Of a stretch of 32,000 nucleotides of DNA, positions 6,123 to 31,428 are shown in pieces; the stretch's first letter is position 1; every line of letters starts with the position of its first letter. Source of the stretch: Candidatus Saccharimonadota bacterium (lineage in GTDB: Archaea; Micrarchaeota; Micrarchaeia; Micrarchaeales; Micrarchaeaceae); NCBI GenBank assembly GCA_963705375.1, contig OY970071.1, forward strand, positions 120,001 to 152,000, written 5' to 3'. A program made the position numbers and the translations under genes. The notes under the pieces are model-generated. The model ran no database searches. It was not told where the DNA came from and saw only the letters and a list, made by a program, of their open reading frames with translations.

Positions 6123-6176
6123 CAAAATCACAACAAACTGTATAAAAATCGTCACAAAAGGCACGTATAAGTATCT
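6123..6176 (+). promoter_or_regulatory. island promoter module (distal box, BRE-like block, TATAAGTATCT) for 6225..7283
   Basis: CAAAATCACAACAAAC (6123-6138), CACAAAAGGCACG, TATAAGTATCT (6166-6176). Confidence 0.7.
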
Positions 6177-6224
6177 GGAAATACAAAGTGTATGCTAGAG
6201 GGCTAAACAGCAAAAGGTCGTGTA

Positions 6225-7283
6225 GTGTTCAAACATAACTCAGATAAGGCCACTTCTGATGTGCAAGAGATTACTATTGGCAACGTTGCAATCTGTATTC
6301 TGAACAGTTCGAATGCTGAGATGCAATTGGCATTGGAGCACCATAACTATCGGCTTAAACATAGAGATATGGCCGTAGAATGTATTGAAGATGGACCACC
6401 CATAGGAGTTATCGGGCTCCCTGACAGCATATGTGGACAGTATGACCTTCATCATCAACATGTAGAAATAGACTCCTCAAAGTCGACAAAGGAAACCTTT
6501 GCGCACGAGTTGTACCACCACAGGCAACGCTTGTTCTTTGATTTCTTACAAAATGCGGGCTCGGCATTCTATGAGGCCGCTGCCTACTTTGCAGGTGCAG
6601 ACTATGCATATTTTTCTGGCAGAATGGGTAATCCAAACTACCTCGACGAGTCGGCAAGCGAAGAGATTCGGTTTGCGGTTATATCGAACTTATGCGCTCG
6701 TTTTCCCGAATCATTTACCTCAGGGCTGATAAGATCCGCTGTTGCGCATGCAGTAGAGAATTCGGAGGTGTTCTGCCGTGCTGTGCTTGAAGACGCCTCG
6801 AATATTATTCGGGCTACTGAAACCCAAGAACGTAAGACTGCATTTGTAGGAAACGTGATTGCGCTGCTTGCGTTCGCTGCGAATGACTTTGACTTCGACA
6901 AGACGTACGACGTGCTGGAGTCCACTCCAGACGAAGTGCTGGATTTCCTAGCCAACGCAAATCAAGAAAACATCGAGAAAGTAATCTGCATGGTGGATGT
7001 GATTTTTGGTATGAGTAAAGAAACACAAGAGCAAACAAACAAAGCGTTCAACGATGATGCATACCTTGTAGCAAATTTGCTATCAAAATCGATGCTGCTG
7101 AAAGTAAAAGAGTATGGCAAGTTTCTGCGCATCATTCCGAGCTGGTCGGAGGCCCCAGTAAAGGACCAATTGTTTGGGATTTACACCAAAGCAGACGAAC
7201 GCGTGGTAGTTCTTCCTGTAAAGGATGACCTTCTCTGCGGGCTAAAGCCCGCAGTATCTCATCACGCCGCGAGCGTCATCTGA
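6225..7283 (+). CDS. family M: ImmA/IrrE-like (COG2856-type) HExxH metallopeptidase-domain protein, 3' end replaced by an IS200-type insertion
   Basis: HELYH at codons 94-98, followed 19 residues later by EAAAYFAGADYAYFSG (resembles the E..An.FA motif of peptidase M78). Paralogous to 8130..9935 and 11462..12334. The last 22 codons read into the IS hairpin. Confidence 0.7.
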   Translation: MFKHNSDKATSDVQEITIGNVAICILNSSNAEMQLALEHHNYRLKHRDMAVECIEDGPPIGVIGLPDSICGQYDLHHQHVEIDSSKSTKETFAHELYHHRQRLFFDFLQNAGSAFYEAAAYFAGADYAYFSGRMGNPNYLDESASEEIRFAVISNLCARFPESFTSGLIRSAVAHAVENSEVFCRAVLEDASNIIRATETQERKTAFVGNVIALLAFAANDFDFDKTYDVLESTPDEVLDFLANANQENIEKVICMVDVIFGMSKETQEQTNKAFNDDAYLVANLLSKSMLLKVKEYGKFLRIIPSWSEAPVKDQLFGIYTKADERVVVLPVKDDLLCGLKPAVSHHAASVI

Positions 7284-7879
7284 CAGGATACGTCTTGCCT
7301 CCTGATGTAATTCTGTACCGTCTTCTCGTCGCGAGGCCCAACACTTCCGTTGCTGTATCCTGCACTCCAGAAGTGACCTTGCAGATACCGCAGCCTATGG
7401 TTAGGTATTTCCTTGAAAACCACATACGACGAATATCCCTTCAGCAGTTGTACTGCAGTTGCAATCGACATTGTATTTGGAATGCCTGTTTCGAGATGTA
7501 TGTGTGCGTAATCATCGCCAAATGACATTTCCTTTATTGAGATCTTGTACCTTTCTGCAACGTTGTAGAGGGCACCACGTATTGCCGCCACGGTTTTCGG
7601 GTTCTTGAACATCTTGTATCGGTACTTCGTAACGAAGACAAGGTGCTGGAAGTTGTATTGATGACCGACGCTGTCGGCAGATGGTTCTTTATTTGCAGCG
7701 GTTCCACTATTCATGTTATCACGTATCGGCAGTTTGCGGCGCAAATTTTTCCGTGCCGCGGCTGCCTTACGCAGAAATCTACAGGAAAAGTATTTCAGTA
7801 ACTGTGCAATTCATTCACGACCTAAAGGTCGTGGTATTCTTGCCCTAAGAATAAGATCCCTTCAGGACAGCAAAAGGCA
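7218..7879 (-). mobile_element. IS200/IS605-family element carrying only tnpA (boundaries approximate)
   Basis: Subterminal perfect hairpins CTGCGGGC-TAAA-GCCCGCAG (7235-7254) and CACGACC-TAAA-GGTCGTG (7816-7833) flank tnpA. The left end TGCCTTTTGC (reverse complement ending at 7879) resembles the TGCCTTACGG end of the second copy. Confidence 0.65.
7262..7714 (-). CDS. tnpA: IS200-type HUH/Y1 transposase TnpA
   Basis: FVTKYRYKMF, the HUH motif in YAHIHLE, and the C-terminal VQNYIRRQ tyrosine helix. The ORF track starts at 7744, but MNSGTA (7714) is the more likely start. Confidence 0.9.
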   Translation of the reverse strand: MNSGTAANKEPSADSVGHQYNFQHLVFVTKYRYKMFKNPKTVAAIRGALYNVAERYKISIKEMSFGDDYAHIHLETGIPNTMSIATAVQLLKGYSSYVVFKEIPNHRLRYLQGHFWSAGYSNGSVGPRDEKTVQNYIRRQDVSCQMTLAA

Positions 7880-8089
7880 TTTTTCAAAAAAGCATACCTG
7901 ATACTCAAAGACAACCTCAAGGACTTCAACATAATCAGAGAAAAATATGACTGGATAACAGTAAGCTCGAAAGAGCACAGCGCGTGAATTTGTAAAACTG
8001 AAAATAAAGTGGGCGGATTACCTAAAGGAAATGCCAACAAGATCCTGGAAGACTAGGCACTGTTGACGTGACGAACCCTGAAAGGTAGG

Positions 8090-8100
8090 TATAAGTATCT
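8090..8100 (+). promoter_or_regulatory. TATAAGTATCT promoter core for 8130..9935
   Basis: Exact 11-mer 30 nt upstream of the ATG. Confidence 0.65.
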
Positions 8101-8129
8101 GAAAAACAAAGGAAATATTTGGTCATCAA

Positions 8130-29481: not shown

Positions 29482-29647
29482 GGGCACCTGCGAATGAAGA
29501 ATCTGGCTATGTTTCTAGGTGCAGGCTTGTCCTCTTTGGGGCACCTGATCGTTCGACGCGTCCATCTTGCTGTTTTGAAACAGGACTGCTCGATCAAGAC
29601 TAAGTCGTGTATATTTCAAGCACTACCTGAAGCACATGCCCAACTTC

Positions 29648-29928
29648 TCATTCTTTAAGGCTTGACATATCTATGACGAAGCGGTACTTAACATCTGCAT
29701 TTAGCGTGCGCTCGAAAGCCTCGTTCACCTGCTGGATTTGTATTTTCTCGATGTTGGCACAGATGCCATGCTCCGCGCAGTAATCGAGCATCTCCTGCGT
29801 TTCCTTTATGCCCCCTACATACGATCCTGCGATCGATTTCCGCCCACGAACGAGCATCGAAGCAGATATCTCGCTTGGCGACGACGTTGGAGGCATACCC
29901 ACAAGCACCAGGTGGCCGTCCCTTTTAA
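29648..29928 (-). pseudogene. zinc-type alcohol dehydrogenase, C-terminal fragment
   Basis: RDGHLVLVGMPP...GGIKETQEMLDYCAEHGI...VKYRFVIDM continues the ADH reading frame that is interrupted at 30531. Confidence 0.8.
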
Positions 29929-30530
29929 TGCCTTACGGGCCTGTGAAATCCCTTGCGTTTACGCATGAGGATGAAACAGGCACAGAATATTATCCCTATT
30001 TCTCGATTTGTCTCCAACGCGGCCGTTAGGCCGCGGAGACCTGAGAACATGGATAGTGTAAACTATGAAAATAAGAACCTTGTGCACAACGCGCACTCCG
30101 TGGGTGCGAACGAATATCATCTGCAATGGGTAACAAAATACAGATATGCGACCCTTGAAAAAGAGTCGCACTGGAAGGATTGCGATGCGGCAATCCGTTC
30201 TGCGGCAGAAAAATATAAAATCAAAATCGTAGAATTGGGCGTAATGGAAGACCATGTTCACGTAGTTGCGGAAATTCCTCCCGAGATGTCTGTTTCTCGT
30301 GCGATAGGACTTCTGAAAGGTTCAAGTTCCTATGAACTCTTCAGAAAACACCCGAATTTTAGGAAGACATATTGGAACGGCCATTTCTGGGGCAGGGGTT
30401 ATTTTTACAGAACAGTAAGTGAGGTGACCGAAGAAACCATCAGAAATTACGTGCGCAGAGACAACAATATGCGTCAGAAGCGACTATGTGCTTGAAGTAA
30501 ATCCCACACCTTTAGGTGTGGGTAGTTTAA
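29929..30530 (+). mobile_element. IS200/IS605-family element (tnpA only), 602 bp, inserted in the ADH gene
   Basis: Removing 29929-30530 restores ...SMLK-RDGHLV... in frame. TTTAA lies immediately 5' of the element and again as its last 5 nt. Subterminal hairpins CGCGGCC-GTTA-GGCCGCG (30018-30035) and CCCACACC-TTTA-GGTGTGGG (30503-30522). Confidence 0.85.
30049..30495 (+). CDS. tnpA: IS200-type HUH/Y1 transposase TnpA
   Basis: HLQWVTKYRYATL, the HUH motif in EDHVHVVAE, and IRNYVRRD. The start at MDSVNYE lies after the left-end hairpin, and the tracked N-terminal extension is IS end sequence. Confidence 0.9.
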   Translation: MDSVNYENKNLVHNAHSVGANEYHLQWVTKYRYATLEKESHWKDCDAAIRSAAEKYKIKIVELGVMEDHVHVVAEIPPEMSVSRAIGLLKGSSSYELFRKHPNFRKTYWNGHFWGRGYFYRTVSEVTEETIRNYVRRDNNMRQKRLCA

Positions 30531-31341
30531 GCATACTGATCAGCGAATTTAGGTCGTGCTTTGCGCTCACGGTATCAAGGATGAAGTCGAATGTTCCGGC
30601 ATGTTCCTTCATTTGCTCCAGAACAGTTGACAACACCACTTCGTCAGCACCGAGCTTCTTTGCATCCTGTACCTTGCCCGGCGATGTTGTGAATTGCACC
30701 ACGTACGCTCCAAACGAATGCGCAAACTTCAATGCCATGTGACCTAGCCCGCCAAGACCCACGACACCTACCTTCTGGCCTTTGCCGACTTTCCAGTGCC
30801 TCAACGGCGAATAAGTGGTGATGCCTGCACACAAGAGCGGGGCTGTAGATGCAGGATCCAGTTTTGGCGATATCTTTAGCACGAAATCCTGATCAATAAC
30901 AATATTGTTTGAGAATCCCCCTTTGGTTATGTCTCCATATTTGTCTCTGGAGTTGTATGTTTTGGTTGTGCCTTTTTCGCAGTATTGTTCAAGCGCTTCC
31001 TTGCATGCATCGCATGTTCTGCAAGAATCCGCGAAGCAGCCAACGCCTACTGTTTCTCCGGGTTTAAACCTCTTTACTCCTGAGCCGACCTTGGAGACTT
31101 TGCCGATGATCTCGTGGCCAGGAACCATGGGATATATCGCCCCGCCACGTTCGTTTCTCGCATTATGGATGTCTGAGTGGCATACGCCACAGAACCGGAT
31201 GTCAATGAGCACGTCGTGCTCGCCGACAGCTCTTCGTCTGAATGAAAAAGGCGCAAGCTTGTCCGTTGCGCTTTTCACTGCATAGCCGTAGCTCATCACT
31301 GTACGGTCAAGACCTTCGATTTCTGATTTGTGTTCTTTCAT
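30531..31341 (-). pseudogene. zinc-type (cinnamyl-ADH/YahK-like) alcohol dehydrogenase, N-terminal fragment
   Basis: CGVCHSDIH, GHEIIGKV, structural-zinc CRTCDACKEALEQYC and GVVGLGGLGH. The start is ambiguous (31413, 31341 or 31296). The tracked ORF tail LPTPKGVGFTSST is IS-derived. Confidence 0.85.
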
Positions 31342-31417
31342 TCTATCAGTCTCTTGTGGTGCGTCAGCACTCTCTTCCACCCAGAAACTTCGGCAATGAC
31401 CTATCCCTGCCAAAACA

Positions 31418-31428
31418 TATAAGTATCT
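31418..31428 (+). promoter_or_regulatory. TATAAGTATCT promoter core for 31458..31925
   Basis: Exact 11-mer preceded by GCCAAAACA. Confidence 0.65.

Follow-up and report, generated by a model that had tools for sequence, protein, structure and literature searches.

A probable extended promoter element upstream of lineage-specific genes in a Micrarchaeota genome

Sites that act just upstream of the core promoter have been described in several archaea and include the Ptr2 sites of Methanocaldococcus jannaschii, the GvpE-responsive upstream activating sequence (UAS) of the haloarchaeal gvp genes, the Sulfolobus ARA box and the TFB-RF1 site of Pyrococcus. The promoter module described here spans about 65 nt and is repeated in a 32,000-nucleotide stretch of a Micrarchaeota genome (contig OY970071.1, positions 120,001 to 152,000; hereafter the window). 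Like the known UASs, its upstream element is located directly upstream of the TFB recognition element (BRE) and TATA box at a fixed distance, is present at a subset of promoters only, carries repeated sub-sites on one helical face and is accompanied by a weak canonical BRE. It differs from them in its much greater length, since it covers about 45 nt and its far end is about 65 nt upstream of where the core ends. Its targets also differ, being unrelated lineage-specific genes of unknown function and not the genes of one metabolic or structural pathway. It has no known cognate regulator, and the searched literature describes no promoter or regulon for the Micrarchaeota (DPANN). The most probable reading, to which we assign a probability of roughly 0.6, is that of an extended archaeal promoter of the Micrarchaeota lineage, in which a near-generic core is combined with a specific upstream element.

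Canonical archaeal core promoters share with the module a TATA-like 8-mer with an A- or purine-rich block upstream, the orientation towards the gene and a distance of 35–59 nt from the start codon; the tRNA promoter of the window is alike. Compared with them, the core of the module is unusually conserved, and in the full modules the A-rich block is set back from the box by 5–7 nt more than a textbook BRE would be. One short conserved promoter in front of many unrelated orphan genes, on both strands, is also a property of the early motifs of giant viruses, exemplified by the mimivirus motif AAAATTGA, which precedes many orphan genes. In our case, however, the promoters are part of a cellular archaeal genome, with an archaeal tRNA promoter, synteny with relatives and essentially no viral signal.

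The core 9-mer TATAAGTAT has ten exact matches in the window, where 0.16 are expected in 32 kb, and ten was reached by no shuffled sequence. Nine of these copies are located 35–59 nt upstream of a start codon, all facing the gene, while the tenth is probably a chance occurrence and not a promoter (Table 1). The 11-mer TATAAGTATCT, with at most one mismatch, is found ten times (0.49 expected); in six copies 11 of 11 letters are identical, including a G inside the box. An initial annotation of the window had reported nine core copies in promoter position, and these, together with its coordinates for the 11-mer and its variants, were all confirmed. The class YATAWRTATCT gives 11 matches against 0.18 expected, every one in promoter position, including those at 416 and 5010, and so exceeds the span from which that annotation had reported it; the near variants are CATATATATCT at 416 and CATAAATATCT at 5010, 17356, 22979 and 25480. 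The promoters at 416 and 25470–25480 are near-identical and belong to an inverted repeat (I5). An A-rich block is always located upstream of the box, at a distance of 2–8 nt, and in the full modules the 5–7 nt at the textbook BRE position are weakly conserved. The orientation and distance of the TATA-like box fit a start site 25–30 nt downstream, as in archaeal core promoters generally. The transcriptional context is archaeal as well: the window contains a tRNA gene with an external TATA box and a T-run (the T-arm of this tRNA-Arg reads GGTTCAAATCC) and a TFB paralogue, and the related locus L157 (see below) encodes a TFB of Micrarchaeales type.

Ordinary promoters, both in the window and in the related loci L157, L208 and L210, consist of rAAAGs followed by TTTWWAWAT(C)T and lack the upstream extension of the module. 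Examples are TTTAAGTATCT and CCTTTAAGTATCTATC, each given for a TRAM gene, GAAAGGTTTAAAAGAG before the TFB gene, and TTTATATATCTCC, TTTATATATCTCCTC and GCTATTATATCTGAAAA. The promoters of a membrane-protein gene and of the tRNA gene are as previously described, but the idea built on them, that the module genes have a TATA/BRE part of their own, is not borne out. Since the ordinary promoters of the lineage read alike, the 11-mer with its A-rich block is best regarded as a strong variant of their common core.

The specific part of the module is the extension of about 45 nt upstream of the core. It is composed of a distal block (cTTaCAAAAyCACAAAC) and a middle block (AAAyTGCCrGAAAAC). With at most one mismatch, the distal box CAAAANCACAAA is found eight times in the window where 1.3 matches are expected, a number reached in 0 of 100 shuffles, and the six previously reported distal boxes (at 6123, 12455, 17772, 19373, 23012 and 27338) are all present. 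When 11 modules are aligned, seven from the window and four from relatives, ten of them align over about 65 nt without a single gap, confirming the fixed spacing noted earlier. The consensus reads GGCTTaCAAAAyCACAAAcTTcTaCAAAtAAACTGCCAGAAAAC-n5-CATATAAGTATCTCcTAAA, with the invariant columns CA...C...A...AA...ATA..TAT; the flanks are not conserved, and the information content falls to background at both edges of the module. Within the extension, CAC, TGCC and the G of GAAAAC are near-invariant non-A positions, conserved across genomes of 45–55% GC. Self-similarity of the extension peaks at offsets of 10–12, 21–22 and 29–32 nt (z up to 3.6, at the 30-nt peak). This spacing puts the A-rich blocks on one face of the helix, with a weak direct repeat (TTGCAaAAyCAC / cTGCCrGAAAACC) at a distance of three turns.

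A profile search of the window with nhmmer returns eight strong full-length modules (at 6119, 12448, 17790, 19390, 23028, 24864, 27353 and 27551), a degenerate ninth at 14702 and core-only promoters at 8090, 12374, 17356 and 31418; seven core-only promoters are counted in the window overall. The copies at 24811–24864 and, weakly, at 14702–14762 are additions to the initial annotation made by the profile.

Comparison loci from other genomes (designated by L-numbers) reveal that the complete three-part module is present in at least three other related genomes. L157 was obtained through a membrane protein, independently of the motif, and is the closest relative recovered: its PQ-loop protein is 59% identical to that of the window, it has several otherwise window-specific families in common, and its TFB is 80–99% identical to proteins labelled Candidatus Micrarchaeales, Micrarchaeaceae or Micrarchaeia. 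The PQ-loop protein itself was discarded as a lineage marker on account of its phylogenetic promiscuity, L214 being of bacterial origin and L158 and L160 being only distant. L176/L192 and L182 were retrieved by a metagenome scan with the middle and core blocks only, and L156, from a Micrarchaeota bin, was the sole informative match of an 18-mer scan of the GTDB genomes, which gave 35 single matches, nearly all of them bacterial and due to chance. A looser scan of IMG/VR with AAAA-N(2-9)-TATAAGTATCT was abandoned; it had at least 120 matches, and those listed contain single chance occurrences. A profile built from the window alone matches L182 (E=7e-13), L176 (3e-9), L157 (2e-8) and L156 (1e-3) over its full length, while in about 200 unrelated control loci it matches only the 30 nt used for their selection. 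In L157, a single full module precedes an orphan gene, and two further TATAAGTATCT promoters are core-only; the full module of L156 is interrupted by an insertion of 7 nt, and this locus also has two core boxes followed by a CCTAAA tail; in L176/L192 and L182 (52–55% GC) the distal block is present too.

The modules of the relatives precede genes without detectable homology to those of the window. The promoter at 12374 is 87.5% identical over 40 nt to the one at 13042 of L157, while the proteins encoded behind the two show no similarity (E=0.56 and 0.41). This cross-species conservation, taken together with paralogues that have diverged beyond their promoters (see below), argues for selection on the promoter sequence itself and not for co-inheritance of promoter and gene. 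A shared regulator-binding site had been proposed from the constant distance of the distal box; that proposal stands to the extent that the box acts like a functional cis-element, the module being kept in relatives before non-homologous genes. Judged from the sequences, the fixed spacing, the confinement to a subset of promoters and the conservation across species regardless of the downstream gene are those of an upstream element.

No full module was found in six loci of related and more distant archaea (L208, L210, L212, L158, L160 and L213), about 111 kb of DNA rich in housekeeping genes, which includes genes for ribosomal proteins, tRNA synthetases, TFB, the proteasome, DnaK and DNA polymerase B. 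In this set, L208, L210 and L212 make up 63 kb around the TFB gene, with ribosomal proteins, synthetases, proteasome, CPSF and DnaK. Over all Micrarchaeota-type loci in which genes were called, 9 of the 84 genes that lack a Pfam domain have a full module in front, as against 0 of the 54 that possess such a domain (p=0.012). The module as a whole is accordingly not the generic consensus placed before most genes in the loci of the relatives; only its core resembles ordinary promoters.

In the mechanism that we propose, the 3' part of the module would serve as the core promoter, made up of the A-rich block, the TATA-like box TATAAGTA and then TCT or CCTAAA, a strong, consensus-like version of the core of the lineage (rAAAGs-TTTWWAWATCT). 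By archaeal geometry, transcription should begin about 25–30 nt downstream of TATAAGTA, which would give leaders of about 5–30 nt. By analogy with known UASs, the extension may be an activating or architectural site for a putative factor that helps to bring TBP and TFB to a promoter whose TATA box is strong and whose BRE is weak. In this way the element would co-regulate, or boost, a set of fast-evolving, lineage-specific genes.

Several points weigh against the extended promoter. We infer the start sites, the protein binding and the factor responsible for it, and the co-regulation from sequence; a literature search on promoters and start sites of Micrarchaeota and DPANN archaea gave nothing relevant. 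The core part is non-specific, with related boxes before a TRAM gene and other ordinary genes. The restriction to a subset rests on the window, about 84 kb of related Micrarchaeales and about 48 kb of more distant archaea, and the association with domain-less genes is not significant within the window alone (p=0.31). The loci L156, L176 and L182 were found because they hold part of the motif. Among the window proteins no candidate for the cognate regulator was found, the TFB-like protein having lost its DNA-reading parts and the solenoid protein being generic (both are described below).

The main rival, which we consider rather unlikely, is a structural role: the whole module would then be no more than the optimal promoter of the lineage, strong, generic and equipped with an UP-like element of its own, in which phased A-tracts act via curvature or via the positioning of chromatin (histone or Alba), so that the genes share high constitutive expression and not regulation. 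Bacterial UP elements and phased A-tracts resemble the module in having A-rich blocks phased at about 10–11 nt upstream of strong promoters, and the A-rich blocks of the extension do have this periodicity; the core agrees with the TATA type that is generic in the lineage, a continuum leads from simple boxes (GCTATTATATCTGAAAA) via core-only TATAAGTATCT promoters to full modules, and histone genes are present in related genomes. The machinery is different, however, with no alpha-CTD, and the near-invariant non-A positions are retained across species, which curvature alone would not call for. In addition, the highly expressed housekeeping genes sampled in the relatives (ribosomal proteins, proteasome, DnaK and TFB) are without the extension. 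If the extension were a structural strength element only, the module would still be a useful description of the promoter grammar of the lineage, albeit an unsurprising one. Quite improbable, and already largely refuted, is that the promoters share nothing but ancestry, having been copied with their genes by duplication, or made alike by gene conversion or by a mobile cassette that carries a promoter, with no regulatory meaning. Three of the genes with a module or core-only promoter (6225–7283, 8130–9935 and 11462–12334; family A) are indeed paralogues, the window is rich in paralogous families and insertion sequence (IS) elements, and a repeat named D4 flanks the 3' ends of many of the same genes. 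But the family A proteins are 25–31% identical in amino acids and their promoters 81–86% identical over 28–37 nt, far above the protein conservation, when neutral DNA would have fully diverged. Most module genes are unrelated, and the modules of other species precede non-homologous genes; the similarity ends sharply at the edges of the module, where neither target duplications nor terminal inverted repeats are present, and there was no match in viral contigs other than an unrelated phage coding sequence. The earlier alternative that the genes had spread together with their promoters is tenable only for the three paralogues, where the promoters have outlasted the protein similarity.

Least probable of all is a shifted register, in which the A-rich stretch CAAAtAAAyTG, located 24–25 nt upstream, would act as the TATA box, and TATAAGTATCT would be an initiator or a conserved 5' leader where the transcript begins. 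Several window copies do have an ATAAA-like stretch 24–25 nt upstream of TATAAGTAT, which is the archaeal distance from TATA box to start site. In L176 and L182, however, this stretch reads GCAAGCTAAC and GCAAACAATC, respectively, neither of which is TATA-like; the core-only promoters (8090, 12374 and 31418 in the window, 13042 and 14180 in L157, 1067 and 1132 in L176) have TATAAGTATCT with no TATA-like stretch upstream; and in simple promoters of this lineage TTTATATCT is found at that same position with respect to the A-rich block. Three known kinds of element were rejected outright. Integron cassettes with attC sites do not fit a module without dyad symmetry, located 5' of genes on both strands, and Pfam returned no integrase. 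A mobile element or miniature inverted-repeat transposable element carrying a promoter is contradicted by information content at background level past the edges and by the lack of flanking repeats. For a bacterial sigma-70 promoter with TTGCCA as the -35 box, the distance to any -10-like hexamer is 12–15 nt, and the context is archaeal.

A more far-reaching form of the extended promoter, which we put forward tentatively and would not bet on, is that the extension is the operator of a dedicated, order-wide Micrarchaeota transcription programme, in which a factor would read the helically phased site of about 45 nt and switch on fast-evolving lineage-specific genes, possibly used in symbiosis with a host archaeon. 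If so, no regulon and no cis-regulatory code would have been defined before it in a DPANN archaeon. The genomes of these archaea are tiny, and most of the organisms are uncultured; the literature that was searched contains nothing on how they regulate their genes. A sharp, long module shared across species is a concrete handle on the orphan genes that form much of their genomes: it predicts start sites, defines a candidate set of co-regulated genes and supplies a bait for a binding factor. It may also flag real genes among the orphan open reading frames (ORFs) of Micrarchaeota metagenome bins.

Table 1. Promoters and other features of the window; the D4 copies in L157 are numbered in that locus.
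Feature	Position	Strand	Sequence elements	Associated gene or context	nhmmer E-value
Full module	6119..6180	+	distal TCAAAATCACAACAAAC, middle block, core TATAAGTATCT 6166-6176	59 nt before start of 6225-7283 (family A, HExxH-like)	1.5e-10
Full module	12448..12513	+	core TATAAGTATCT 12499-12509	48 nt before start of 12547-13044 (165 aa; no known domain)	1.8e-15
Full module	17725..17790	-	core TATAAGTATTT 17729-17739 (one mismatch)	45 nt before start of 17488-17694 (68 aa)	7e-14
Full module	19326..19390	-	core TATAAGTATTT 19330-19340 (one mismatch)	41 nt before start of 19075-19299 (74 aa)	1.9e-13
Full module	22965..23028	-	core variant CATAAATATCT 22969-22979, tail CCTAAGCG	65 nt before start of 21682-22914 (410 aa)	3.8e-9
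Weaker full module	24811..24864	-	CGCAAGAAACCGCAAAC ... CTGTCAGAAAACC ... CATAAATAC	about 42 nt before start of 23755-24777 (340 aa)	3.9e-6
Full module	27296..27353	-	core TATAAGTATCA 27295-27305 (one mismatch)	42 nt before start of truncated TFB-like ORF 26760-27263	6e-14
Full module	27551..27616	+	core TATAAGTATCT 27602-27612, CCTAAAT tail	precedes alpha-solenoid repeat protein 27637-29481; divergent from module 27296..27353	2.3e-12
Degenerate module	14702..14762	+	TTACAGAATCACGAAC ... CAACAAACTGCATAAAG ... GTATATATTT	before 14750-15193, whose true start is likely the ATG at about 14777	0.004
Core-only promoter	8083..8103	+	GAAAGGTAGG-TATAAGTATCT-GAAAAA; 11-mer from 8090	40 nt before start of 8130-9935 (family A)	
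Core-only promoter	12361..12382	-	TAAAAGCAGG-TATAAGTATCT-GAAAAAAC; 11-mer 12364-12374	40 nt before start of 11462-12334 (family A)	
Core-only promoter	31413..31432	+	CTGCCAAAACA-TATAAGTATCT-CCTAAAT; 11-mer from 31418	40 nt before 31458-31925; divergent from ADH gene 30484-31413	
Core-only promoter	17342..17385	-	GCATAAATATCTCCTAAGCG	before 16447-17244; long 112-nt leader containing a D4 repeat copy	
Related core	416..426	+	CATATATATCT	before 462-896; outside span of initial annotation	
Related core	5000..5010	-	CATAAATATCT	38 nt before start of 4301-4972; outside span of initial annotation	
Related core	25470..25480	-	CATAAATATCT	before true start of the 24989-25510 gene	
Tenth TATAAGTAT copy	18857..18865	+	no A-rich block	within and antisense to ORF 18654-18869; no gene downstream	
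tRNA-Arg(CCG)	25597..25708	+	external TATA-like box ATATTTTAAAA about 30 nt upstream; trailing T-run	non-module contrast promoter	
Truncated TFB paralogue	26760..27263	-		only the first cyclin repeat is kept; its residues 21-113 align with 189-278 of TFB (38% identity)	
D4 repeat copies	17276-17320, 17393-17437, 17812-17856, 18597-18641, 20952-20996, 21597-21641; partial near 23070-23114				
D4 repeat copies in L157	597-642, 2053-2098				

The initial annotation had put forward the TFB-like ORF 26760–27263 as a possible reader of the boxes. This is not supported, as the parts that read DNA are gone: the ORF is without the Zn-ribbon, the B-reader and the second, BRE-reading repeat. Since only one cyclin repeat is kept, it is unlikely to read the boxes; from its sequence it is predicted to be unable to read a BRE or recruit polymerase, and it could at most bind TBP. 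Its DNA is 69% identical to part of the full-length TFB gene of L157, and the ORF could be either a fragment of a gene or a modulator that binds TBP. The Micrarchaeales TFB gene itself is preceded by a palindromic box, AGATATATATATCT (9905–9925 in L208 and 19552–19562 in L157). Its arm facing away from TFB (TTGCCnACAAATAGA-TATAWATATCT) is kept in two assemblies with no protein gene downstream, and may drive a small RNA that is not annotated.

The module-driven gene 27637–29481 (plus strand) encodes a 614-residue protein with about 15 alternating two-helix repeats of 34 and 37 residues (LTsdEVkPkamEGiAALVkkGwirdASkAasaFk). It is predicted with confidence to form an alpha-solenoid (pLDDT 84.6), and its structural neighbours are generic HEAT, TPR and PPR proteins and designed solenoids, with TM-scores of 0.07–0.27. 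Against the PDB sequences, only a designed repeat protein and no natural relative was found. The length of the repeats and their 'LTxxxV' start had suggested a TALE-like protein; no TALE is present among the structure matches, and the idea was dropped. The protein is related to those encoded by 19498–20313 and 21008–21496, both on the minus strand.

The description of the module genes as unrelated is correct for most of them; the family A trio and the repeat-protein group are kin. Their description as an island did not survive, since no boundary is evident at 6123 and paralogues of the supposed island genes are located at 1793–4197. These are paralogues of the genes at 13960–15958, in similar order (for example, 3008–3469 and 14750–15193 are 43% identical), and the two clusters suggest a segmental duplication of lineage-specific genes. 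In L157, the same gene families adjoin the same PQ-loop gene as in the window. The GC content of the window is even, except for an inserted IS element. The window proteins are singletons, and almost none has a Pfam domain, with no DNA-binding domain above the cut-off. They have faint matches only in PHROGs and none in PADLOC, and nothing was found in the viral contigs of IMG/VR apart from the phage coding sequence mentioned above; these near-negative searches rule out a provirus or defence island.

Family A is characterised by an invariant HELYH motif (HExxH, metalloprotease-like), an observation with which protein P0249 was grouped. Twelve relatives are present among 1.84 billion representatives in an exhaustive HMMER search, and none was found in a word-indexed search or in IMG/VR. 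One of the relatives is a protein of 7,571 residues, in which the motif region is matched in 65 separate stretches.

The inserted IS element (5108–6107, GC 36.5%) has 25-nt terminal inverted repeats (CTGTAGAAATCC...), contains a DDE transposase gene (5102–6013) and ends 12 nt upstream of the first full module. Two distinct IS200-type Y1 transposase genes (7262–7744 on the minus strand and 29953–30495 on the plus strand, 40% identical to each other) are also present; a gene of this type is found in the relative L158 as well.

The D4 repeat is about 45 nt long and reads AAACTATCTTAGCAATTCCAAGCAAGTTTGAGAAAAATATGTTTT on the gene strand. Its copies are located 12–51 nt past the stop codons of minus-strand genes, before the next promoter, and once within a long 5' leader. 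A hairpin terminator was rejected, as there is no folding signal (z-scores of -1.45 to +0.70); D4 may be a 3'-end or terminator-associated element.

A non-coding block at 16064–16330 (plus strand) is 77–79% identical over 266 nt to positions 2164–2427 of L157 (minus strand), far above the level of protein conservation. It contains runs of 60 identical nt, two T6 runs and the palindromes TTCCAT...ATGGAA and TCATGGAA...TTCCATGA, and has no codon pattern. Rfam gave no match for it; the block may contain one or two small RNA genes. A 34-nt direct repeat (25867–25900 and 25984–26017), whose two copies are 94% identical and 117 nt apart, follows closely behind the tRNA-Arg gene. It falls in a doubtful ORF rich in Leu, Ser and Phe (25852–26601), and the copies may be non-coding repeats beside the tRNA.

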